Shown here: piece after piece, positions 19,411 through 32,736 of the stretch
How the letters are laid out: each line of letters opens with the position of its first letter
How positions within the stretch are numbered: position 1 is the first letter of the stretch
Assembly (NCBI GenBank): GCA_031409275.1
Contig: JANNXA010000055.1
Coordinates: forward strand, 128,001-192,000
DNA: 64,000 nt
Reading direction: 5' to 3'
From: Planctomycetota bacterium
Lineage (GTDB): Bacteria > Planctomycetota > B15-G4 > SIAN01
The notes under the pieces: model-generated
What the model was told of the DNA's origin: nothing
What the model saw: the letters and a program-made list of their open reading frames with translations, nothing else
Databases searched by the model: none
Made by a program: the position numbers and the translations under genes

Positions 19411-20342
19411 GACGCGCTCTCTCGCTGCCGGACCGCGCGCAACCGCGCGGCGCTCTTGGCGAGCAGCAGTCCGATCTCGAACAAGACGAGCATCGGCACC
19501 GCGACGAGCATCTGCGAGACGTAGTCCGGCGGCGTGATCACCGCCGCGATGATGAAGATCGCGAGGATGCAGTGGCGCCGTTTGCCGCGATAGAACTCCG
19601 GCCCGACCAGCCCCGTGCTCGAAAGCACCCACATCACCAACGGGATCTGGAAGACGAGCCCCATCACCAGCAAGAGCAGGAACAGCAGGCCGAGGTACGA
19701 GCCGATCGCCACCTGCGGCCGCACGAACGTCGGATCGCCGTAGCCCACCAGGAAGCGCACCGAGAGCTCGGCCAGGACGAAGTAGCCGAACGCGAGACCG
19801 ACGAAGAAAAAGAGCAGCGAGACCGGGAGCACCCTCCCGACCATGCGCTTCTCGGCGTCGTAGAGCCCCTCGGCAACGAACCGCCACAGCTCGTAGAGCA
19901 ACACCGGCGCCGACACGATCAAGGCCGCCAGCAGGCACTCGAGCATGTAGGCGCTGAACGCCTCGAGCGTTCCGACCGCCTGCAGTTGCGAGAGCGACGG
20001 CGGCGGCTCGCGCCACTCGACCGCCTGGAGCGTGCTCAGTTCCGCGAAGTCGGTGTCATCGAGCAGGCTCTTGCGATGGAGTCGCTCGATCAGCAGGTCG
20101 ACCGTACGTTTGATCGGGTGCTCTGGCGCCGGTCGCGCCAGCCACTTCTCGGCGAACTCCGCATTCAACGAGGCCCGCGCGCGCTCGTAAGGGCGCGTGA
20201 AGAACTCCATGAGCGATTCCTGAAACGCGAACGCGGCGGCAAATGCCACCGCGAACGCGAGGATTCCTCTCATGAGACGCCGGCGCAGCTCCTCGAGGTG
20301 CTCGCCGAACGTCATCCGGACGTCGTCAGGGGCGAGACTCAC
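19407..20342 (-). CDS. tatC: Twin-arginine translocase subunit TatC
   Basis: MTFGEHLEELRRRL, ELWRFVAEGLYDAEKR, FQIP, AVITPPD, PMLVLFE. Confidence 0.95.
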   Translation of the reverse strand: MSLAPDDVRMTFGEHLEELRRRLMRGILAFAVAFAAAFAFQESLMEFFTRPYERARASLNAEFAEKWLARPAPEHPIKRTVDLLIERLHRKSLLDDTDFAELSTLQAVEWREPPPSLSQLQAVGTLEAFSAYMLECLLAALIVSAPVLLYELWRFVAEGLYDAEKRMVGRVLPVSLLFFFVGLAFGYFVLAELSVRFLVGYGDPTFVRPQVAIGSYLGLLFLLLLVMGLVFQIPLVMWVLSSTGLVGPEFYRGKRRHCILAIFIIAAVITPPDYVSQMLVAVPMLVLFEIGLLLAKSAARLRAVRQRESAS

Positions 20343-21607
20343 TCGTACTTGAGGAACTCAAGGATCTCGCGCACCGGGAGCACCTGAACGCGATAGAGCT
20401 GCGCGAGCTGCATCTCGGCCGATTCGGAAGAACCGGCATCGGAGCCATCGCCTTCCGCCGCCGCGTCCGCCTCGCCGCTCGCCGCAGCCGGCTCGGCGTC
20501 ACCCATCACCAGGAAGTCCGTGGTCGGACCCACCTTCTCGGAGACGTTGGCGCCCAGAGCGCGGAGCCGGTCGGCGACCATGGCACGCGAGTAGCCCGAC
20601 GGGAAGCGACCGGTGAGGACGAACTCGCGCGGCATCTCCGGGTCGTAGTTCGGAGCCGAGATCTTGTCGCCGCGAGAAATCGGGTCGAAGCGATCCTTCA
20701 GATCGACCACGGTGCACTCGGCCATCGCCTCGTTCACCGAGGAGACCTCGACCATCCCCTTCTCGCGCATCGCGCCGTTCTTGCCGTAGGTGAAGACCTT
20801 GAAGCGCGTTCCGCGACGCAGCAACTGCTTGCTGCCGAGATCGATGTAGCAGGTGTTCGCGGTGCTGACCGCGACGACGGAGCCGTCCGGCTCATCCGGA
20901 AGGCGGATCACTTCGAGCTTCTTCGACATCTCCGCGATGCGGCCCTCGCGCTTGCGGACATCGTCATTCAGCGCGGCGACCTGCTTCTCGAGCTCTTCCT
21001 TCTCGGCGCGGGCGCGCGCTTCGGCAGCGTTCAGGCGCCCGTTGAGCTCTTCGATGCGGGTTTTGTCCGACGTCTCCTGCGCGCCATTGCGATCGCGCTC
21101 GTCGGAGAGCTGGCGCTGCACTGCCGCCGTCGCTTCATCCTTCTGGCGCGTCATGTCGCGCAGGTTCTGTTCGGTCGACGCGCGCGACGCTTCGGCCGTC
21201 GTTTGCGCCTGCTTGGCTTCGGCGAGCTGACGCGTCAGGTCATTGACCTGCGCCTCGAATCGCTCGACCACGCGAGCGAGGTTCGACGCGTCCTTGCCGA
21301 CGAAACCGTAGCTCTCCTGGAGCGCGGTCAGGCGGCCTTTGATCTCGTCCGGACGCGCATCCGAGTTCGGATCGGTCTCGTCACGGAAGCCGACGTGCTG
21401 GGCGAGGGCGCGGACCTTGCCGGCCGACTCCTCGTACTTGGCACGCGCCTGCGCTTCGAGAGTCTGCGCGTCCTTGACCTTCTTCTCGTTGTCCGCCTTC
21501 TCAGAGGCGAGCACGTAGATGCCGGCGCCGGCAAAGAGCACGAGCGCGAGCAACACGATGACCCAAATGACGCCAACAGTCGCGGCCCCGCGGATTCGGC
21601 GGTTCAT
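20339..21607 (-). CDS. Membrane-anchored coiled-coil protein with C-terminal beta-rich domain and BRCT-like domain
   Basis: N-terminal TM helix and long charged coiled coil, then PDGSVVAV..CYIDLG..LRRGTRFKVF, then FVLTGRF..SRAMVADRLRALGANVSEKVGPTTDFLVMG (DNA-ligase-type BRCT pattern). Confidence 0.75.
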   Translation of the reverse strand: MNRRIRGAATVGVIWVIVLLALVLFAGAGIYVLASEKADNEKKVKDAQTLEAQARAKYEESAGKVRALAQHVGFRDETDPNSDARPDEIKGRLTALQESYGFVGKDASNLARVVERFEAQVNDLTRQLAEAKQAQTTAEASRASTEQNLRDMTRQKDEATAAVQRQLSDERDRNGAQETSDKTRIEELNGRLNAAEARARAEKEELEKQVAALNDDVRKREGRIAEMSKKLEVIRLPDEPDGSVVAVSTANTCYIDLGSKQLLRRGTRFKVFTYGKNGAMREKGMVEVSSVNEAMAECTVVDLKDRFDPISRGDKISAPNYDPEMPREFVLTGRFPSGYSRAMVADRLRALGANVSEKVGPTTDFLVMGDAEPAAASGEADAAAEGDGSDAGSSESAEMQLAQLYRVQVLPVREILEFLKYE

Positions 21608-22560: not shown

Positions 22561-22696
22561 ACCGCGCGCGATCGTGACATCCGCGGCCCTCGTCAACGAG
22601 CGAGGCACGGCTACCATCGCTCGCGGACGTCCGGCCCAACTTCGGCCCAAGTCCCAACCCGTGTCCCGAATCGATCTCCCCGGATGGAGCTTGTCG

Positions 22697-23443
22697 ATGC
22701 AACGAAGTCACGCGCTCAAGCTCGGCGCGATCCTGCTTGGATCGTGCCTTGCCCTGATGCCGGAGTCGTTTGGCTACGGCTGAGGTCCTGGATGCGGCTC
22801 CGGAGGAGCTGGCGGTTCGTCGGGTGGCGCGAGCGGAGGCGGAGGACCCTCGGCCGGATCAGGAGGCGCTGGCGTGCGCTCCGGCGGAGGCGGCTTTGGC
22901 CGACGCAAGCCCTCCTCGACGGGCAGCGGAGATGGCGGCGGATCGGGCGATCTCTTCACGCCGGGGCAGGACGGCAACCTGTCGTGGAACGGGACGCAGC
23001 CGATCGCCAACAAGCCGATCCTCGTCTACGTCTTCGATGGCCACATCTACGACGGCAGCGTCTTCGACTTCAGCAAGCGGATCGAGACCGAACTGCTGAA
23101 AGACCCGCAGGTCATCAAGGAAGCACGCGACTTCGTGTGCGAGAAGGTCTGCGTCGGAGATCACGAGTTCCTGCGCAAGGTGAAGGGGCGCGAAGCTCTC
23201 ACCGCGTATCTCACCGCGAACCTCGCCAAGCCCGAACAGCGCAAAGTGCAGCTCTTCTTCCTCGATTCGACCGGACAGTGGATCTCGACCTTCAACGACC
23301 CGAAGGCGATCAAGGAAGGCGCGCCAGCGCTGTTGCGTGAGATGCGCAAGGCGAAGGAAGAAAACGCCAAGCGACTCGCCGCTCTCGCGGCGAAGGCCGC
23401 CGCACCGGCCGCCGGAAAAGGGACGGGCGCCAAGAAAGAGTGA
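22697..23443 (+). CDS. Candidate exported selenoprotein: signal peptide, U-G-P-G-C, Gly/Ser linker, thioredoxin-like domain
   Basis: ATG 22697 with GGAG SD; in-frame TGA at 22781-22783; the frame stays open and joins ORF 22874-23443; hairpin follows the TGA. Confidence 0.65.
22794..22813 (+). promoter_or_regulatory. Putative bacterial SECIS hairpin
   Basis: GCGGCTCC-GGA-GGAGCTGGC stem-loop; the loop starts with G, 18 nt after the UGA. Confidence 0.45.
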
Positions 23444-23506: not shown

Positions 23507-24517
23507 CTAGCCCCCGCCCTTGCGTGGTGGCGATTTCGGGTCGTCGGCCGGCAGCTTGTCGAGCTGCTTCTGCGCATCGGCTGCGACTGGCAGTCCCTTC
23601 ATCCCGCGCACGACGTTCGCGAGCCGCTTCCTCGCGGCGGCGCGATCGCCCGCGCGCGCGACTTCGAGCGCTTCCTCGATCTGCCCCTCCGCCTCCTCGA
23701 TCAACGCGGCCTGCAACTCCCCGATCCACTGCGCCAACGCGGCGGTCTTGAGCGGCCGCGGCAGCGACGCGTCCTTGATCCCCTTCTGCTCGGCGATCAG
23801 GAGCTTCCCAAGCTCGCGATGAACGAAGCTGCCGCCACGCTTCTCGCGTTGATCGATCAATGCGCGGACCGAAGCGAGCAGCGCCGCGTACTCGCCGTAG
23901 CTGAAGCTTGGGTGTGCCCGATCCTTGTTGGCGTGAGCCAGTTCCTCCTCCAAGCGCTCGATCGTGAGCTGATGGCCCTCCGCTCGCGCGCGCTCCAAGC
24001 CATCGGCGCCGACGAAGACATGCAGCGGATTCCAATACTCGCGCTGCGCGAACTCGTCGCGAACCTTCACGTAGCTCGCGCGATGCTCGTCGCACGCGCA
24101 GTCGAAGAGGTCGCACCAGTCGATGGAAGCGTTCGCCGCGACGCGAGGCTTCGATGGATGTGCCTTGCCATCGAATGCCGCGAGCAGCACCACTTTCTGC
24201 GACAAAGCGCCGAATCCAGGCTTCGAGTAGACCGCGCTGCTCATCGACTTGAAGCCCGAGCTTTGATCGTCGCTGAGCACGGCGAGCACCGGCACGTTGC
24301 GCCGCGTCGCCTCATCGAGCGCGCCGTACCAATCGCCCGTCCAACGCACCTCGTCGGCCTTGCGCTCGCGCGGCACCTCGAACTCGAGTCGGCGCCGCGC
24401 GCTCTGGGTCAGCGGGCTGATGAAGTCGTCGATACTGCGGCTCGGACACGGCGACGCGAGCGGGGCGAACGCGAGAGTGGCGGCAGCGAAGCCCCACCGG
24501 AGTCGATTGACGGCCAT
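23507..24517 (-). CDS. Exported thioredoxin-like protein with helical C-terminus
   Basis: Signal peptide; VRWTGDWYGALDEATRRNVPVLAV matches the Thioredoxin_7-like start; no CxxC at the canonical site; WCDLFDCACDEH cluster. Confidence 0.7.
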   Translation of the reverse strand: MAVNRLRWGFAAATLAFAPLASPCPSRSIDDFISPLTQSARRRLEFEVPRERKADEVRWTGDWYGALDEATRRNVPVLAVLSDDQSSGFKSMSSAVYSKPGFGALSQKVVLLAAFDGKAHPSKPRVAANASIDWCDLFDCACDEHRASYVKVRDEFAQREYWNPLHVFVGADGLERARAEGHQLTIERLEEELAHANKDRAHPSFSYGEYAALLASVRALIDQREKRGGSFVHRELGKLLIAEQKGIKDASLPRPLKTAALAQWIGELQAALIEEAEGQIEEALEVARAGDRAAARKRLANVVRGMKGLPVAADAQKQLDKLPADDPKSPPRKGGG

Positions 24518-24555: not shown

Positions 24556-25314
24556 CTAGTGGCGCCGGCCCGGCGCGCGCTCCAACGCCGCCTCCGCACG
24601 GCGCGCGTCCGCAGCCCGTTGCTCGGAACGCACCTGCTCGAGCTGCTCTGCGACTTTTTCGCGCATCGCCACGTCGGTTGCGCCGCCTCGCAGTGCGCGC
24701 TCGCCCCCCGGGGCGCCGCCGCCCTCGTCCTCGCCGCTGCTCGAACCACCGGTCTTGCCTGGCGCGCCTACCGCCGCCCGCGCCGCCGCTGCGCCGGGCT
24801 TGAGCGGGCCGCGCGCTCCGCTGCGAGCGGCCGCCGCCGCCGCCGCTGCAGCCTCGCCCGCCCGCTCCCACGCCTTGTCGCCCTCCTCGGCAGCGCGCAG
24901 ACCGGCAACGACCCCCGCCAGGCTCGCCATCACTCCGGAGTCGCTCGAACGCTCGATCGCCAACTCCGCGAGCGCCGCACGGGCAAGTCGCAGGTCGGCC
25001 GCGATCGCGCCCCACTGAGCGCGCGCGTCGGCGACGGCTTTGGTGGTCGGCCGTCTCGGCGGCTCGCCAGGACGCGGCCGAACGCGCGCTCGCTCGAATC
25101 GCGTGCGCGCGAAATCGAAGGTCGCGGCCCGCGCCAGCGAACGATCGGGCGCGTCGCAAAGCGGCGCGAATCGATCCGCGGCCTGATCCCATTCGCCCGC
25201 CTCGGCCAGCGCCAACGCCTGCTCGAAGGCGTTCGAAAGCGACCCGGCGACTTCCTCACCCGGAGTTCCCGATCGCATCAGGAACACGCACAGCGACGTC
25301 AGCAGCGACCTCAT
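24556..25314 (-). CDS. TPR-like protein (BatC-like) of the MoxR-vWA cluster
   Basis: AFEQALALAEAGEWDQAADRF TPR-like helix; coupled to the upstream vWA gene. Confidence 0.55.
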   Translation of the reverse strand: MRSLLTSLCVFLMRSGTPGEEVAGSLSNAFEQALALAEAGEWDQAADRFAPLCDAPDRSLARAATFDFARTRFERARVRPRPGEPPRRPTTKAVADARAQWGAIAADLRLARAALAELAIERSSDSGVMASLAGVVAGLRAAEEGDKAWERAGEAAAAAAAAARSGARGPLKPGAAAARAAVGAPGKTGGSSSGEDEGGGAPGGERALRGGATDVAMREKVAEQLEQVRSEQRAADARRAEAALERAPGRRH

Positions 25315-26096
25315 GGCTCGCGACCTCCGAGGAAGTGGGCGGCCACGGCCAGCGCGAAGGCGAGCCAGGCGCAACCCGTGACCCACCGCTCTTTCGTCGT
25401 CGCCGATCCGGACCGCGTGCCCGCCGCCGCCAGCGCGCTGACTCGCTCCGGTCGCGCCTCGCTCCACTCGACGGCGTCGCCTCCCGAAGCAGGATCGGCC
25501 CGCGGCAATGCCGCCGGCGTCGACCGACCCAGAGGCGTCGCATCGATCCGATGTCCTTTCGCGCTCGCCTCGGCCAACAGCGGCGCGGGATCGCTTCCCT
25601 CCCACTCGCCATCGCTCAACAACCACAGCTCCTCGCCGCTGACCATCGTGGCCAGCGCCAGCGTCACGCCGGCTCCCGCGTCGCTGCCGGCGTCTGCGAT
25701 GCGCAGCGGGTCGAGTTCACCGACGAGTTCGAGCAGTGCGGCATGGTCCGCCGTCGGTGGCGCCACGGTCCACGCCGTTCCAGCGAACGCGACCACGCCG
25801 ACGCGGCGCCCCGCTTCACGCACGAGACGCGTCTTCAGGCATTCGATCGCTCGCTGCCAGCGCGTCGGCACTTCATCGGCGGCGAGCATGCTGCGCGACA
25901 GATCGAGCACGACCCGCAACGCCGGCGGCGCCGCGCCGCCCGCTGACGGCTGCGCCGAGCGCGGTCCCGCCAACGCGATGACGAGGAACGCGAGCGCCAG
26001 CGCCTCGCACCACGCCCGCGCTCCCCGCGCGCGCCACGCCAGCAGCGCGATCACCGCGAACAGCGCCCAGAACCAATGCGGTGCAGCGAAGCTCAT
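25311..26096 (-). CDS. vWA domain membrane protein (BatB-like)
   Basis: MSFAAPHWFWAL, ALAGP, VLDLSRSM (MIDAS), GVVAFAG, PPTAD, LSDGE. Confidence 0.8.
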   Translation of the reverse strand: MSFAAPHWFWALFAVIALLAWRARGARAWCEALALAFLVIALAGPRSAQPSAGGAAPPALRVVLDLSRSMLAADEVPTRWQRAIECLKTRLVREAGRRVGVVAFAGTAWTVAPPTADHAALLELVGELDPLRIADAGSDAGAGVTLALATMVSGEELWLLSDGEWEGSDPAPLLAEASAKGHRIDATPLGRSTPAALPRADPASGGDAVEWSEARPERVSALAAAGTRSGSATTKERWVTGCAWLAFALAVAAHFLGGREP

Positions 26097-27061
26097 GGCA
26101 AGCTCCGCAGCCAGCGTCGCTCGACCGTGACCAGCAGGCACCAGCCGATCAACACGGCGACCCACAGGCCGTTGCCGAGCGGCTGCTCGATCACTCCTTC
26201 GCGGCGTTGCGTCGGTCGCTGCTCGAGCGCATCGATCGTCGCCCACGCGGATTGCAACGCGCTGGCATCGCGAGCGACGAACGCCGTCCCGCCGGTCGTG
26301 CTGGCGATCGATTCGAGCAGCTGCGTATCGACCGCCGGCCGGCCGCTGCCGAACTCCTCGCCGGCGCCCAGAGCGATGGGATAGACCCGTACCTGCTCGG
26401 CGCGACAGAAGTCGGCGCCTTCGAGCGGCTCGATCGGGCCGACGTTGTTGGCGCCATCCGTGACCAGGATCAGGACGCGCGTGCGGCCGCTGCCCGCGGC
26501 GAGGCGCGCAGCGCCGTCCGCCAGCGCCACACCGATTCCGGTGCGATCCTCCTCGCCAGCGGCCGCGACGGGCGCGGTCTGCGCGAGCATCGCCTCGAAC
26601 AGCGCATGGTCCCAGGTGAGCGGACAGCGCAGTCGTGGGTAGCGGGCGAAGGTGATCAAGCCGAGTCGATCACCGGGGCGACGTCCGGCGAAGGTACGCG
26701 CCGCTTCGCGCGCCGCGTCGAAGCGCCGGCTCGCAAACGACCCTGCGAGCGTCGCAGTCATCGACGACGAAGCGTCGAGCGCCACGAGCAGGTCGACGCC
26801 CGGGCGCTCGTCGGTCAGCGCGCGCCGAGCAAGTCGCGGATTCGCCAGCGCCAGCGCAAACAGGACGAGCAGCAGCGCGCGCAACGCGGGCCATGCGGCG
26901 GCGAGGCGGTCGAGCCGCGTGACGGGCAACCCGCCGAGCCACCCAAAATCGGCGAACGCCTCGCCTTTGGTCTGGCGCCGGCGGCGCGCGAACTCGGCGA
27001 CCAGCAGCAAGGGGAGCGTCGCAACGAAGAGCCACGGATCGGCGAAATCGAGCGCGCTCAT
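26093..27061 (-). CDS. vWA domain membrane protein (BatA-like)
   Basis: FADPWLF, ALANP, LDASSSM (MIDAS), DRLGLITFA, PLTWD, TGIG, ILVTDGANN. Confidence 0.88.
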   Translation of the reverse strand: MSALDFADPWLFVATLPLLLVAEFARRRRQTKGEAFADFGWLGGLPVTRLDRLAAAWPALRALLLVLFALALANPRLARRALTDERPGVDLLVALDASSSMTATLAGSFASRRFDAAREAARTFAGRRPGDRLGLITFARYPRLRCPLTWDHALFEAMLAQTAPVAAAGEEDRTGIGVALADGAARLAAGSGRTRVLILVTDGANNVGPIEPLEGADFCRAEQVRVYPIALGAGEEFGSGRPAVDTQLLESIASTTGGTAFVARDASALQSAWATIDALEQRPTQRREGVIEQPLGNGLWVAVLIGWCLLVTVERRWLRSLP

Positions 27062-27942
27062 CGATCGCCCTCGTCGAGCGCGTTGGCGAGGCGAACGCCG
27101 AGATCCGCCGCGAGGCGCGCGGCCCCGTCGGCGGCGAAGCGCGCGTGCTCGAGTTCGTCGAGCAGCTGCGACCAGCGCCCCTGCTGAGCGAGCGGCCACG
27201 CGCCAGCGCCGCTCGCTGCGAGCAGCTCCGGCAGCGTCCAGGCGTAGTCGCAGCGCTCGCTGCGCGTCATGAACTCGACGCGCAGCAACGCTTCCACGCG
27301 CGCGCCCCACACCCGGCGCGCTTCGAAGTCGGACGGCAGTGGCTCACGCAGCAGCGCTCGATCGCGGCCGGCTTCCGACGGCTCCGGTCGCGGCGCGCCC
27401 TGCGTGTGATCGCCGCGCCGCCGGCGAACGCCGTACACCCACGCGCTCACGACGGCGAGGAGGATCGCTCCGATCACGATCCGCTGGCGCCCCTTCGTTG
27501 GAGTCGGAGGCTCCCGCTCCGGGCGCCGCCATTCGGCAAACGGCGGCGGCGCAAAGCCTTCCGCCCACGGCGACTGCACGTCGACCTGGAACACTTCGCT
27601 TTCGAGGCGTTGCTCCGCGCCGTCCGCCATTCGCAGCACGAACGCGAAAGGCCCCGGATCGAAGCGACCCGGCGCGCATGCCTGCAGTCGCCAGATCAGC
27701 CGCGCGGTCCGGTCGGTTGCGTCAGCCGGAGAACTTGCCTGATCGAGCAGAACGAAGGCGGGATCGAGGTCGAGGCGTCCGCCCAGGCGCAGCGCCGCGC
27801 CGATCTCCGCTTCCGTTTCGAAGGTCCACTCGAGCTTCGCGCCGAGCGCGACGAGCGGAGGGTCGACCACCACGCGCGCCGTTCCCACCGAGCTCGCTTG
27901 CGCGGCGAACGCCAACACGACGGCGACGGTCGCGCCGCTCAT
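27058..27942 (-). CDS. Exported/membrane protein of the Bat cluster (BatD/DUF4381-like)
   Basis: Signal peptide, beta-rich N-terminal domain, TM helix, ARFAA near the C-terminus; lies between DUF58 and the BatA-like gene. Confidence 0.6.
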   Translation of the reverse strand: MSGATVAVVLAFAAQASSVGTARVVVDPPLVALGAKLEWTFETEAEIGAALRLGGRLDLDPAFVLLDQASSPADATDRTARLIWRLQACAPGRFDPGPFAFVLRMADGAEQRLESEVFQVDVQSPWAEGFAPPPFAEWRRPEREPPTPTKGRQRIVIGAILLAVVSAWVYGVRRRRGDHTQGAPRPEPSEAGRDRALLREPLPSDFEARRVWGARVEALLRVEFMTRSERCDYAWTLPELLAASGAGAWPLAQQGRWSQLLDELEHARFAADGAARLAADLGVRLANALDEGDR

Positions 27943-28832
27943 CGCCGCCTCCGGATGGCGCGCCGGCGCGCCCACGCCAACACCGGCGCCAGCAGATCAC
28001 CGTCCGCGTCGAGTTCGACCCAGTCGGCGCCCAGCCGGCGCGCTCGCGCCGCCGCCGCCGCTCGCTCCGACTCGATCCGCTGCAGGAGAGCGGCGCGCAC
28101 GCGCGGGTTTCCCAGATCGACGACCCGCCGCGCGCCCCCTTCGGGGTCGTCGAAGCGCCAGCGACCGCTCGTCGGCAATCGCGCCACGAGCCCGGCTCGC
28201 AACGCCAGGAAGACGAGGTCGTGGCGCTTCGCGACGCGCGCCAGCGTGGCATCGCTCGCCGCGGCGTGCGCGTCGCTGACCACGAAGAGCAGGAGCGGGC
28301 GGCCACGAATGCGCATCACGCTGGCCAAGGTCGCATCGAGGTCGGTGGCGGGCGGAGCATCGTCGTACGCGAGCCACTGCGCCACCCACGCCAGCCACGC
28401 GGTCAATCCATGGCGCGGCGCGACCCATCGCAGCAGGTCGCCCGCGAAGATCCCGGCGCCGACCCGGTCGCCCGCCTGCGCCGCCGACCAGCCGATCACG
28501 GTCAGCAGCTCCGCCGCTGCAGCGCGCCACGGTCGCGTGCCGGCGGCCACCGCGGTGCTGCGCGATCCGTCGAGCAGCATCACGACCGACTGCTCGCGCT
28601 CCTCGTCGTATCGCTTCACCTGCAGACGGCCGCTGCGTGCCGTCACGTTCCAATCGATCGTGCGCGCATCGTCGCCGACGACATAGTCGCGCACCTCGGC
28701 GAACTCGACCCCGGCGCCGCGCACGGCGCTCGTCCATGCCCCGCCGAGTCCAGCGCGCACGGCTTCACGCGCACGCAGCTCCAGCGCGCGCACGGCGGCG
28801 ACCACGCGCGGATCGGGGGACGGCAGCGCCAT
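27939..28832 (-). CDS. DUF58 domain protein
   Basis: GVEFAEVRDYVVGDDARTIDWNVTAR, VKRYDEERE. Confidence 0.92.
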   Translation of the reverse strand: MALPSPDPRVVAAVRALELRAREAVRAGLGGAWTSAVRGAGVEFAEVRDYVVGDDARTIDWNVTARSGRLQVKRYDEEREQSVVMLLDGSRSTAVAAGTRPWRAAAAELLTVIGWSAAQAGDRVGAGIFAGDLLRWVAPRHGLTAWLAWVAQWLAYDDAPPATDLDATLASVMRIRGRPLLLFVVSDAHAAASDATLARVAKRHDLVFLALRAGLVARLPTSGRWRFDDPEGGARRVVDLGNPRVRAALLQRIESERAAAAARARRLGADWVELDADGDLLAPVLAWARRRAIRRRR

Positions 28833-28844
28833 GGCCAACTCGGC

Positions 28845-29813
28845 TCAGGGCGCCGGCACGGTGCGCAACAGGTCGGCGAGCAGCTCGTCGACCGTGCGAC
28901 CCGCCGCTTCCGCCTCGAAGCTGAGCAACAGGCGATGGCGAAGCACGTCGGGCGCGAGTTCCTTGACGTCGCTTGGCGCCACGAACGCGCGACCGCGCAG
29001 CAACGCCAGCGCCTTCGCCGCCACCAACAGCGCCAGCGAGGCGCGCGGTGAGGCGCCCAGCCGCAATTCGCGGCGCGTCGGCTCGCGCGTCGCGGCGACG
29101 ATGCGCAGGACGTAGTCGTGGATCTCCGGCGCCGCGTGGATGCGATCGAGGAGCGCGCGCGCCGACAGCAGTTCCGCGCGCGTCGCCACCGCCTGCAGCG
29201 GGCGCGTCGCCGCGCCCCGTCCATGACGGCGCAGGATCTCCTCCTCTTCGCTGCGCTGCGGGTAGCCGAGCCGGACCTGGAACAGGAAGCGGTCGAGTTC
29301 CGCCTCCGGCAGCGGATAGGTCCCTTCGTGCTCGAGCGGGTTCTGCGTGGCGAACACGACGAACGGCACCGGCAGCGGCAGCGACTGCTCGCCGATGGTC
29401 ACTTGCCGCTCCTGCATCGCTTCGAGCAGAGCGCTCTGCACCTTGGGCGGCGCGCGGTTGATCTCGTCGGCGAGGACGAGCTCCGCGAAGAGCGGTCCGC
29501 GCCGCACGGTGAAGTCGCCGCTGCCCGGTCGGAACAGCTGCGTGCCGATGACGTCGGCCGGCAGCAGGTCGGGAGTGAACTGGATGCGCTTGAAGGCGAG
29601 TCCGCTGGCCTGCGCCAACGCCGCGACCGCGAGGCTCTTGCCGAGACCGGGGACTCCCTCGATCAGCGCGTGACCGTCGGCGAGCAGCGCGACGAGCAGT
29701 CGGCGCACGAGCAGCTGCTGCCCGACCAGCACCGTCCCCACTTCCGCCTCGATGTGGGCGAAGAGCTCTCCGGCGATCTCGATCTCGTGTTGCGCTGCGC
29801 TCTCTGCCGCCAC
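28845..29813 (-). CDS. MoxR family AAA+ ATPase
   Basis: LIEGVPGLGKS, RIQFTPDLLPAD, LADEINRAPPKVQSALLEAM, ATQNP, LPEAELDRF. Confidence 0.96.
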   Translation of the reverse strand: MAAESAAQHEIEIAGELFAHIEAEVGTVLVGQQLLVRRLLVALLADGHALIEGVPGLGKSLAVAALAQASGLAFKRIQFTPDLLPADVIGTQLFRPGSGDFTVRRGPLFAELVLADEINRAPPKVQSALLEAMQERQVTIGEQSLPLPVPFVVFATQNPLEHEGTYPLPEAELDRFLFQVRLGYPQRSEEEEILRRHGRGAATRPLQAVATRAELLSARALLDRIHAAPEIHDYVLRIVAATREPTRRELRLGASPRASLALLVAAKALALLRGRAFVAPSDVKELAPDVLRHRLLLSFEAEAAGRTVDELLADLLRTVPAP

Positions 29814-29817
29814 TCGT

Positions 29818-32736
29818 TCAGTGTCCGTTTCCAGCCCCGCCACCCGCGGCCTGAACCGACGTCGCCTCGCGCCAGCGCGCGGCGAGCGCCGCAATCACCG
29901 CAGGCTCGGCCTCGGTCGCCAGGCTGCCGAGCGAACGGCCGTGGATGGCTTCGAGCAGTTCGAGCGCGCTGCGTCGAACGAACCAGCGCGGATCCTCGAT
30001 GGCCGCGACGAACAAGCGCTGGAACGCCGCGTCGCGGTAGTCGCTGCCCGCAGGAACCACTGCCCCCGCCTCCTTCAACGCTGACAGGAAGTGGTCGAGG
30101 TGGCTCGCGCTCGGAGCGGCTTCATGCAGGGAACGAAACTTCCACGTCTCGGTTCCCGGATCGTGGCAGAAAAGGTAGGTCAGCAGCGTCTGCGCACGTC
30201 GGTGGGAGCGCTCCTCCTCGAGGTCGGCGAGCAGGACCGGAACGGCATCCATCTCGCCGAGGTCCGCGAGTCCATAGGCGGCTTCTCGCGCCAGGGCGCC
30301 CTGCTCTTCGGTGAGCAGTCGGCGCAATCGAGCGACCGCCAACGATCGCGGCAGCGCCTTGATCCCGGCCAGCGCCAGGCGGCCGATCGCTGCCGTGGTG
30401 CCGACCTCGCGCGCGATCCCTTCGAGCGCGGCCGCCGCCGCTTCGTCGCCACGCTTGGTGAGTCCTTCGAGCGCTGCCGCTGCCAGCGAGGTGTCGTCGC
30501 CGCGCACGGTCGCCACCAGCATCGCCAACGCGTCGTCGCGATGGGAGAGGCCGAGCCACCGCAGCGCTTCGGCACGGACCGCCATCGGCGCCGACTGCGC
30601 CTGCTCGAGCAGCAGTGCAACGCCCGCCTCGCCCCCTTGGCGCGCCAAGAGCGACAACGCCTTGCTGCGTACGCGCTCCTCGGCATCCGTGCGCGCGACG
30701 GCAACGAGCCGCTCGTCGTCGAAGCGAACCCCGTCGCGCTCGGCGATCGTCAACGCCGCAAGGCGCACGAGCGGTCGCGGGTCGTCGAGCGAACGCTCGA
30801 TCCGATTCATCCGCGTCACGGCGCTCACGATCAGGTCGAGCGCGGCGCCACCGCGAGGCGCGATCGCATCGACGACGCGATCGAACGCGTCGTCGCGATT
30901 CGTGGAGATCAGCAGTTCGATCACCTTCTGCGTCCGCGCGTCACCGAACGGGAGCTTGGCGAGCAATGCGGCCAGGCTGTCGATCTGCGTCGCACGGACG
31001 CTGCCACCGAGATCATCGATGCGCGCGAGCACGACGAAGGCCTGCCGCGCCGCCACCGGATCGTCCGAGGCCATCTGGGCCAGTGCCAGGTCGAGCAGTC
31101 GCGAGCGCCGCGCCGCCGCGTCCTCGTGCGTCGAGAACCACGCCTGCTCCTCCGCGAAGCGCGACGGGAAGGTGCCATCGAGCGGCAGCAGCAGCTGCCA
31201 GAGCGACGGCTCGACGGCGCGCCGAATCAGTCGTTCGAACTCGATGCCGCGCGCCTCTTCGGCCCGCAGCGCGACGACTCGCTCCTTGCCGCGCGACGTC
31301 AGTCGGAGCATTCGGTCGCCCGCGGCGGCAGGTTGCAGCTGGCGCGGCAGCTCCGCGTCGAGCAGGCCGGCGTCCTGCAGATGCGAGAGCAGGTCCCGCA
31401 TCGGTTCGGCCCCGAGGTAGATCGCGCCGGGACGCTGGCCCGACGCGATCGCGGTGCGCTGGTGCTCACCGCACACGATGACGTCGGTCTGCAGTTGCCC
31501 GGTCGCGTCCGCGCTCTGCACGGTCACGACCGCATCCTGCGCATCTTCATCGAGGACGAGCATTTGCAGCTCGCGACGCCCCTCGAAGCGCGCGGTCGGA
31601 TGGGCCGCGAACCACTCGCGCCAAGCCGGCACGCTCGGCCCGAGCCGCTCGCCCGTCAGCACCTCGAGGCAGGTGACGGCGGTCTTGAAGCAGAGTTCGA
31701 AGTCACCGAAGAAGCGGCCATTCACCACGACGTCGACGAGCGCCGGGACCACCTGTTCCTGCGTCACCGGGCCGTACGACTCGCTGCGGTAGCCGATCGT
31801 GCCGCAAACGACGCACGCCGTGGCCTGCAACAACGGGTCGCTCGTGCGCACCATCGGCAGGAATCGATCGAACAGCGCTTCCGGAAGCAGAGCGGTCGCG
31901 GTGCGCTGCTCATGTAGCACCAGCGCGAGCGCCGCGTGGAGGTTGCGCCGCTCCCGTTCACCGCCGGCGAGCCGAGCGAGCTCGGCCACGACCGCGGGGT
32001 CGTCCTCCCACGACAGGAGCTTCGTCGCCTCGATCGCCAACGAGGGATCGCGATCGCCGAGGAAGCGCTCGAGCGCCAGCGCCGGCAGCGTCGGCTCCTT
32101 CATGTCGCGCAGCAGTTCGAAGAGATCGAGGCGCACACCTTCCGAACGCGTCGCCACCAGCTTGCGCATCAGCTCCGCGCGCACCTCCGGAGTCGCATGC
32201 AGACGCAGCAGCGCCGTCGCCGCGCCGCGCAAGGGCGCCTGCTCGGAGTCGAGGAAACGCAGCGCCAACGCGCCGCCGCGCGCTTCGTCGAGTTCGAACA
32301 GGGAGGCGAGCAGCGGTGCGAAGCGCGTCCGTTGACGCGGGTCGGCGAAGAGCTTCTCGATCTGGGGGAACGACTCGCCGTCCGCCAGCAGGCAGAGCCC
32401 GCGCGCCGCAGCCGTCCGCTCGAGGACGGTGCCGTCCTTCAACCGCGCCCGCAGGAGCGGGACGAGCTCCGGGCCGCGCGCCACCAGGGCGCGCAGCGCC
32501 CGCTCGCCCGACTCGCCGGGCCACGTCGTGATGAGGGGCAACGCCTTGGCGAGCGCCTGCTCCGACGTGACGACCACAGGCTCTTTCGAGTCGCGGTCAC
32601 GCGGCTTGTCGCCGTGGTCGAATTCGGGGCGATCGCGATCCTGCTTGCCCGCGCCGCCGCCACTCTGTGCCGCAGCGGGCGACGATAAAACGACAAGAGC
32701 GGCGAGCACCGCCGGCAGTTTCCACATGAACGTCAT
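29818..32736 (-). CDS. Large exported HEAT-repeat protein
   Basis: Signal peptide (AAA-Q); multiple HEAT-like repeats (DDPRPLVRLAAL, EDPRWFVRRSAL, AREAAYGLADLG). Confidence 0.8.
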   Translation of the reverse strand: MTFMWKLPAVLAALVVLSSPAAAQSGGGAGKQDRDRPEFDHGDKPRDRDSKEPVVVTSEQALAKALPLITTWPGESGERALRALVARGPELVPLLRARLKDGTVLERTAAARGLCLLADGESFPQIEKLFADPRQRTRFAPLLASLFELDEARGGALALRFLDSEQAPLRGAATALLRLHATPEVRAELMRKLVATRSEGVRLDLFELLRDMKEPTLPALALERFLGDRDPSLAIEATKLLSWEDDPAVVAELARLAGGERERRNLHAALALVLHEQRTATALLPEALFDRFLPMVRTSDPLLQATACVVCGTIGYRSESYGPVTQEQVVPALVDVVVNGRFFGDFELCFKTAVTCLEVLTGERLGPSVPAWREWFAAHPTARFEGRRELQMLVLDEDAQDAVVTVQSADATGQLQTDVIVCGEHQRTAIASGQRPGAIYLGAEPMRDLLSHLQDAGLLDAELPRQLQPAAAGDRMLRLTSRGKERVVALRAEEARGIEFERLIRRAVEPSLWQLLLPLDGTFPSRFAEEQAWFSTHEDAAARRSRLLDLALAQMASDDPVAARQAFVVLARIDDLGGSVRATQIDSLAALLAKLPFGDARTQKVIELLISTNRDDAFDRVVDAIAPRGGAALDLIVSAVTRMNRIERSLDDPRPLVRLAALTIAERDGVRFDDERLVAVARTDAEERVRSKALSLLARQGGEAGVALLLEQAQSAPMAVRAEALRWLGLSHRDDALAMLVATVRGDDTSLAAAALEGLTKRGDEAAAAALEGIAREVGTTAAIGRLALAGIKALPRSLAVARLRRLLTEEQGALAREAAYGLADLGEMDAVPVLLADLEEERSHRRAQTLLTYLFCHDPGTETWKFRSLHEAAPSASHLDHFLSALKEAGAVVPAGSDYRDAAFQRLFVAAIEDPRWFVRRSALELLEAIHGRSLGSLATEAEPAVIAALAARWREATSVQAAGGGAGNGH

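Follow-up and report, generated by a model that had tools for sequence, protein, structure and literature searches.

A candidate selenocysteine at the mature N-terminus of an apparently undescribed family of probably exported thioredoxin-fold proteins in Planctomycetota

Within a 64,000-nucleotide stretch of Planctomycetota DNA (the window), an in-frame TGA separates a signal-peptide-like region from a thioredoxin-like domain. Is this TGA a stop, or does it place a selenocysteine (Sec, U) at the exposed end of an exported protein, and what would such a protein do? A preliminary description of the locus had proposed an overlooked exported selenoprotein.

The reading frame and its in-frame UGA codon

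The locus had been described as a gene split in two, and its coordinates were confirmed. An SD-like GGAG (22686..22689, + strand) lies 7 nt 5' of the ATG at 22697, the TGA is codon 29 (22781..22783, +), and the frame then stays open to a TGA at 23441-23443, giving a whole read-through gene of 248 codons (22697..23443, +; product P0001). The protein collection and the ORF list hold only a 189-aa short form (P0002) from GTG 22874, the annotated start, which with its upstream AGGAGG (22861..22876, +) may serve this genome (G000) as an internal start for a Sec-less product. A sigma-70 promoter search gave no match. The identical TGA occurs on contigs of sequencing runs X1 and X2, which match the stretch exactly and may both be a source of this genome; contigs of X3, X4 and X6-X8 miss the TGA, and X5 spans it near a contig end only, so that no conclusion is drawn from these runs. 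Two flanking blocks are kept in the genus. One (20339-21607, -) encodes a coiled-coil protein whose C-terminal part gives a BRCT-like match, and adjoins tatC and coaE; the other (25311-29894, -) is a putative MoxR / DUF58-like / BatA-BatB vWA operon.

Within the class, 10 of 42 genomes carry the family; G102 and G132, from two further classes, carry it too, and searches around these two found no more members. Nineteen metagenome loci added 12 distinct N-termini, and nearly every named relative is a Planctomycetota MAG. Both a TGA and a readable N-terminus are present in 24 distinct orthologues from three classes, and in each of them the TGA comes directly after a signal peptide and a Gly. This count leaves out two false hits (G030/L018 and L048), one locus that ends before the tip (L036) and redundant loci (L030-L031 and L037-L039, copies of G001 and G005; L021-L029, from the genomes of L009-L017). 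The ATG lies 24-28 codons before the TGA in every orthologue and is preceded by an SD-like word in 24/24 (permissive pattern). The intervening region, residues 1-28 in P0001 (22697..22780, +), has a basic N-terminal end and a hydrophobic core in all of them, and its differences across 10 pairs fall on codon positions 1/2/3 as 40/18/62. Because the TGA holds the same place in 24 distinct orthologues, it is more than chance. A nonsense mutation was also considered and rejected.

What homologues carry at this codon had been named as a decisive check. A profile search of 1.84 billion representatives returned 33 proteins at E up to 1e-10, and 35 of the 55 listed were examined; among these, most close homologues start within the arm that follows the TGA. 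Remote relatives (E 1e-6 to 1e-3) mostly have the signal joined to the domain, with the arm absent. Six full-length homologues without a TGA join signal, arm and domain, five of them with a Cys or His tip. In P0025, the paralogue at L019, a Cys occupies the U column, the tip of P0035 reads Cys-Asn-His with no stop, P0028, P0032 and P0033 have His tips, and P0026 is full-length and stop-free with neither Cys nor His at its tip. Cys at the Sec position is thus found in few homologues (L019/P0025, P0035, P0070 and two genes of the sister family described below), and His occurs too. No Gly, Trp or Arg was found at the tip position among the homologues examined.

The Sec machinery, whose presence had likewise been proposed as a check, is complete in G000 (92.9% complete): selA (E 5e-145), selB (2e-99), selD (6e-101) and the tRNA-Sec gene selC (76 bits) all score above cut-offs. 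The selD gene has an in-frame UGA of its own, with a G-loop hairpin at +27. All 10 family carriers of the class have selA; the G102 assembly has selB and selD with selA absent, and its family orthologue is divergent from the selB gene. Elsewhere in this machinery, a single 18-kb contig of G102 carries two selB genes (L217, G102:C294), L217 and L214 (G126:C123) both have a NapH-like ferredoxin membrane protein, a double-cubane reductase cluster adjoins selA in G126 (L214), and two selA genes occur in G126 and several order-level relatives.

A hairpin with its loop 18 nt past the UGA had been pointed out, and it turned out to be conserved in structure. Its 7-bp stem (CGGCTCC, 22795-22801; GGAGCTG, 22805-22811) encloses a GGA loop (22802-22804), and the whole element (22795..22811, +) has an energy of -9.3 kcal/mol. 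This agrees with the bacterial SECIS consensus in the available part of PMC13188914, which has a loop of 3-9 nt with G in the first two loop positions, 16-37 nt from the UGA, and an energy of at most -7.5 kcal/mol. Across 22 orthologues the loop starts at +18 (9), +24 (6), +21 (2), +27 (2), +13 and +28, and the mean hairpin energy is -9.8 versus -2.0 in windows further along that arm. In 13 of the 22 the hairpin is better than in shuffles of synonymous codons that keep the peptide (p<0.05; P0001, p=0.044); no clear hairpin lies behind the TGA of G002. With the structure taken from P0001 and related rows in a MAFFT alignment, 78.6% of cells are paired versus 57.0 when shuffled (0/500) and 45-60% in slid controls. 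RNAalifold returns the same stem, with compensatory changes in 5/5 pairs. As background, such a hairpin occurs at 70 of 1782 gene-ending TGAs of G000. The 80-nt region after the UGA has no excess stability over shuffles (z 0.41), and the centroid structure of this region is a fold that competes with the hairpin; the case for a SECIS is therefore built on position and covariation.

Alternatively, the TGA could be a true stop or a leaky switch, with a 28-aa leader peptide upstream and a cytoplasmic, Sec-less domain made from an internal start. The AGGAGG 7 nt before GTG 22874 fits this reading, databases annotate exactly that protein, and TGA is the main stop codon in G000 (985 of 1190 scored gene ends). 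However, an SD with a start within the arm is found in only 2/24 orthologues, and in 5/24 the arm is without any ATG, GTG or TTG. The frame is kept in each of the 23 arms measured, over 42-65 codons, the hairpin covaries, and the six homologues noted above run unbroken from signal to domain. Furthermore, selA is present in 103/107 carriers of the sister family versus 187/294 non-carriers (a hand count over kin that are not independent); of the four selA-negative carriers, the three checked, which carry U, all have selB. We regard a true stop as highly improbable and consider codon 29 to be very likely decoded as Sec. The selenoprotein reading of the preliminary description is supported by the TGA kept in 24 orthologues and the complete machinery.

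A genome-wide read-through scan of G000 with its own coding model gave many typical selenoprotein candidates, by motif of the TlpA/AhpC-type W-U, Grx-like, MsrA, deiodinase-like and AhpD-like types. Two of the four candidates submitted in the right frame scored above NCBIfam cut-offs (VPGUxxT, NF041383; ArsC-like, NF041106). Picked by eye, the candidate selenoproteome comes to ~30 genes (contigs C7, C9, C14, C16, C23, C27, C28, C30, C33, C34, C37, C43, C45, C47, C50 and C51). There are FG-GAP/ASPIC-like candidates with D-x-U (C34:64177, C14:295797) and with W-U-I or G-U-V motifs (C3:2400, C30:17689), and a heavy-metal-associated-like candidate with G-V-G-U at C6:2306 that was not found in the available part of the PMC13188914 catalogue.

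Tip, arm and thioredoxin-fold domain

Judged from its sequence, the signal of P0001 would be cleaved after residue 26 (or 28), and export with cleavage is likely to leave U at mature position 1-3. The preliminary description had stressed a U-x3-C motif, formed by U29 and Cys33 (22793..22795, +) as second chalcogen of the tip. This stands for P0001, and the same spacing is found in 5/24 orthologues, but not as a motif of the family. Cys lies at +1, +4 or +5 in 21/24 orthologues: at +1 (U-C) in 9, at +4 in those 5 and at +5 (U-x4-C) in 7, with a lone U in the remaining 3. Given this spread, U-x3-C is just one variant; what stays constant at the tip is signal-Gly-U, while the distance to a second Cys varies.

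A lipobox commonly has Gly at position -1. Since Gly precedes U in 24/24 orthologues, the Gly-U junction might be a lipobox and the product a selenolipoprotein with a lipidated Sec. However, charged residues stand at -2/-3 or just upstream in many orthologues (L-D-S-G, L-E-A-G, G-R-G), and the residue before U is Gln or Cys in 44/94 sister genes. Inspection of the 24 signal regions did not bear out a lipobox, and we hold this to be the least probable of all the readings considered here.

Behind the tip, residues 30-86 (22784..22954, +) form a Gly/Ser-rich arm that is predicted to be disordered (pLDDT <50 over residues 9-50 and 52-85). The linker from U29 to the domain spans 58 codons and is 68% Gly/Ser, and the arm is unconserved low-complexity sequence. 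In G000, codon 48 of the gene for an exported HEAT-like protein (C50:93510-91414, -; L050) is likewise an in-frame TGA, followed at +24 by a hairpin with a GGT loop; a TGA of this type is absent from seven homologous loci (two incomplete), which have His-Gly tips or Cys instead. Exported proteins at C18:41802(+), C22:106400(+) and C37:104024(-) have His-Gly-Gly after the signal and Gly/Pro/Thr-rich arms, and P-T-T-G-G-like words are common to the arms of the His-Gly-Gly proteins and of the Sec family.

The Gly/Ser linker and a thioredoxin-like domain that has CEKVC and lacks CxxC had also been described, and both sequence and fold model agree with this. Residues 87-235 (22955..23401, +) are modelled with pLDDT 91.7 as a domain followed by a long C-terminal helix. 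The best structural match (VIA PDB set) is 3f9u_B (Z 11.1, rmsd 3.0, 111 aligned); others are 1sen (Z 10.4), DsbD (9.7), DsbH (9.6) and AGR2 (9.4), with rmsd 3.0-3.8 over 109-117 residues, and identity to the structural matches is 9-21%. According to this model, the domain is a thioredoxin fold without CxxC. Strand order would place D-G-H116 (23036..23044, +) at the thioredoxin CxxC position, where most rows have D/N-G-H, some a single Cys, and only P0042 a CxxC. The His-tipped P0028, P0032 and P0033 have a Cys here, where Sec-tipped members have His116. These three proteins form one clade (support 95/89) and thus represent one event. The His/Cys swap rests on this clade, since P0022, P0023, P0027, P0029, P0038, P0042, P0047 and others are truncated before the tip; in the tree, the labels of rows P0031 and P0036 as G132 and G102 genes are provisional. 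In the C148-E-K-V-C152 strand (residues 148-152; 23138..23152, +), C148 is invariant in 32/32 rows and C152 is 88% conserved.

Sequence searches placed the protein in no described family, as the preliminary description had supposed of its architecture. P0001 had no Pfam match, and among 25 members a Pfam thioredoxin model came up in 2, short of its cut-off (best E 0.048). No NCBIfam model matched P0001, nor did any match the two sister proteins, the three homologues with His or Cys tips or the three read-through orthologues submitted, while NF041383 and NF041106 passed the cut-offs as positive controls in the same search. A PDB sequence search with the family returned nothing significant, and the top Atlas cluster is from Planctomycetota, with 23% Thioredoxin_2.

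The neighbouring gene and the sister family

The earlier account of the architecture held for the signal, U tip, arm and domain, but it missed a predicted partner encoded next door. This convergent gene (23507..24517, -) specifies a signal-bearing, thioredoxin-like and helical protein of 336 aa without CxxC, in which H120, C135, C142 and H145 form an invariant H-x14-C-x6-C-x2-H motif; it had no NCBIfam match. The neighbour adjoins the Sec gene in 18/23 loci, in convergent, divergent or tandem arrangement. A strong orthologue of it (E <=4e-74) is found in the same 10 of 42 genomes, with a best match of 3e-18 in the other 32; 9 of these 10 genomes supplied partner-alignment rows, and kin are not independent. 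Outside the class, the two genes are adjacent in G132, and G102 has the Sec gene with no strong partner match (best E 3e-8; genome 90% complete). In G006 the partner lies beside a tip-less paralogue, not the Sec copy.

We modelled the domain together with the neighbour's product, leaving out the arm tip. The predicted complex scored ipSAE 0.87 in three runs versus 0.00 for the best control, on a scale where the mark was reached by 116/157 solved and 2/215 mismatched pairs, counts that are only rough for these alignments. The runs agree in at least 96% of contacts, with a partner pLDDT of at least 91. On P0001, the predicted interface comprises G90-Q101, R144, K150-C152 and 157-163, where conservation exceeds that of the remaining residues (0.69 vs 0.46, p=0.0002). 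The partner shows no significant excess of this kind (p=0.22; p=0.05 for polar residues alone), although six of its contacts are invariant. The core of the interface would be the conserved G90-Q101 segment (22964..22999, +), and the prediction accounts for its invariant F-x-P-G...W-N motif. Our modelling and the gene linkage suggest that the P0001 product probably binds the neighbour's product in the cell.

Relatives of the neighbour occur at other places in these genomes. A partner paralogue lies ~740 nt from the tRNA-Sec gene of G000 (C40:203847-204605, +), partner-like paralogues lie 10-15 kb from selA in G021, G024 and G026, and a partner-family homologue at L241 (G043:C187:6200-6967) has an in-frame TGA within the match.

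Two tandem genes of G000 (C14:124168-123362 and 123113-122367, -; L049) share the layout of P0001: signal, G-G-U, arm, CxxC-less thioredoxin-like domain and long helix, each with a G-loop hairpin. They seeded a sister family that is weakly related to the P0001 family (HHalign probability 73.6); three loci are matched by both family profiles. The sister profile matched 107 of 401 genomes of the phylum, several of which carry multiple copies, and selA is immediately preceded by a sister gene in G073 and at two loci of G126. Tips were read from 90 loci of about 180 matches, giving 100 distinct genes. U comes right behind the signal region in 94 of them: 55 have adjacent U-C or C-U, 18 a nearby Cys, 15 two U and 6 a lone U. 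A second C or U thus lies near the Sec in 88/94, in freely varying order (UC, CU, UU, Ux3-4C). The other six genes have Cys only (2), neither residue (2) or no clear signal (2).

Proposed function and relation to known selenoproteins

In our proposed mechanism, the CxxC-less thioredoxin-fold body would bear an arm of 57 residues, predicted to be disordered, with Sec and Cys33 at its free end. The body, its own active site lost, would serve as a docking module bound to the neighbour's product, and the tip as a swinging Se/S redox centre acting on the partner or on a shared client. The reduced tip would be a selenolate/thiol pair and the oxidised one a selenenylsulfide, replaced by a diselenide in UU members. 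Because the arm exits the modelled domain beside the predicted interface, C135/C142 of the partner would be the nearest candidate target. We favour a redox arm for two reasons: roughly nine in ten genes keep a second chalcogen close by, whatever its order and spacing, and Gln starts many of the sister tips. Lone U in 3/24 orthologues and 6/94 sister genes speaks against it. Overall, redox chemistry at the tip seems somewhat more probable than metal binding, and we hold the whole chain of a Sec-tipped, exported and partner-bound protein with a swinging Se/S redox arm to be evenly balanced between right and wrong.

The same recoded exported heterodimer may instead carry a soft-metal ligand at its tip (Cu, Ni, Hg or similar), which folds back to the thioredoxin site or passes metal to the partner's H-C-C-H. 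His in place of U in P0028, P0032 and P0033, together with Cys in place of His116, fits a metal site better than redox chemistry, and the Cys-Asn-His of P0035, the invariant partner motif, the lone-U members and the exported HEAT-like proteins of this lineage, whose similar arms begin with His-Gly-Gly, point the same way. The x-x-His (ATCUN) motif and the nickel-hook spacing are N-terminal metal-site analogies. U or His would be at mature position 1-3 by predicted cleavage only, and Gln directly precedes U in 23/94 sister genes. An N-terminal Gln may cyclise, in which case the amine ligand would be lost, which counts against a metal tip, as does the descent of the His-tipped trio from one event. 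CU pairs have been tied to heavy-metal handling in the available part of Haft and Gwadz (10.1101/2022.07.06.499078). No metal-transport or resistance genes were found among the neighbours examined here. We consider a metal tip the close rival of the redox arm, possible but on the unlikely side.

A third reading keeps the inserted Sec and makes the tip non-catalytic, as an envelope oxidant sink or selenium depot whose body is anchored through the partner. The order and number of tip residues vary freely on an unconserved low-complexity arm, and several genomes have multiple copies, some beside selA or selB. However, each chain has one or two Sec, which would make for poor storage, and the strict mature-tip position and the dedicated conserved partner suggest a specific reaction. 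We find a sink or depot improbable.

The protein can be compared with selenoproteins and folds already described. Bacterial thioredoxin-fold selenoproteins (UxxC Trx, Prx-like, TlpA UGC, Trx7/PDZ NF041199 and VPGUxxT NF041383, in the available part of PMC13188914) share with it the UGA, an in-frame downstream SECIS, the fold and a Sec near a Cys, and G000 encodes several of the catalogued ones too. In those proteins the Sec is part of the fold's active-site motif, whereas the corresponding motif of P0001 reads D-G-H, and its Sec is carried 58 residues upstream, on the arm predicted to be disordered. HMMs of the thioredoxin-fold selenoprotein families that have NCBIfam models did not match P0001, and nothing in the listed motifs or names of the cd02966, cd02970, cd10141, cd01144 and PTHR43551 families suggests its layout. 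On these sequence comparisons, P0001 is outside every thioredoxin-fold selenoprotein family with a testable model. The closest folds, the DsbD-gamma / DsbH / ERp18 / AGR2 domains (Pfam Thioredoxin_7-like), provided the best structural matches; unlike them, the P0001 domain lacks CxxC and the Pro before the strand that follows CxxC in thioredoxins.

Animal thioredoxin reductase has a flexible C-terminal Gly-Cys-Sec-Gly arm. It resembles P0001 in its flexible terminal Se/S pair beside Gly, which may reach another subunit. In contrast, the tip of P0001 is N-terminal, bacterial and made by signal cleavage, with no flavoprotein and a predicted heterodimer rather than a homodimer. Vicinal Cys/Sec pairs, some on exported proteins, are also found in SaoC, SaoB and HgcA, and in HgcA the CU pair is in an overlooked N-terminal extension (available part of Haft and Gwadz, 10.1101/2022.07.06.499078). 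P0001 has no sequence or NCBIfam match to these proteins, and folds and gene context differ.

The layout was not found among the 119 families in Table 1 of PMC13188914, and Planctomycetes are not mentioned in the available part of that source. Nor was a description of the family found in the literature searched, including the available parts of PMC13326102, PMC12013277 and PMC4807772; Haft and Tolstoy 2025 (PMC12013261), the groundwater candidates of Deng et al. 2026 and BSepDB Table S2 might list members. This is apparently an undescribed exported selenoprotein family.

If the proposals above are right, the two proteins would form an envelope redox (or metal) relay of Planctomycetota, in which a Sec-armed CxxC-less thioredoxin docks on a second CxxC-less thioredoxin with H-C-C-H. 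The relay would belong to a phylum-wide superfamily with U-C, C-U, U-U and His tips in at least a quarter of the sampled genomes. We put this forward tentatively, with slightly less than even confidence. The family apparently represents a new and widespread architecture, in which an exported protein has its Sec at the mature N-terminus and apart from the fold's active site. Because annotation omits the signal peptide and the Sec, such genes are filed as cytoplasmic hypothetical proteins, and uncultured Planctomycetota have large, under-annotated selenoproteomes. With the predicted partner, an orphan family becomes a two-component system open to testing, and the naturally occurring tips (U-C, C-U, U-U, Cys and His) form a series for asking what selenium gains over sulfur or imidazole.
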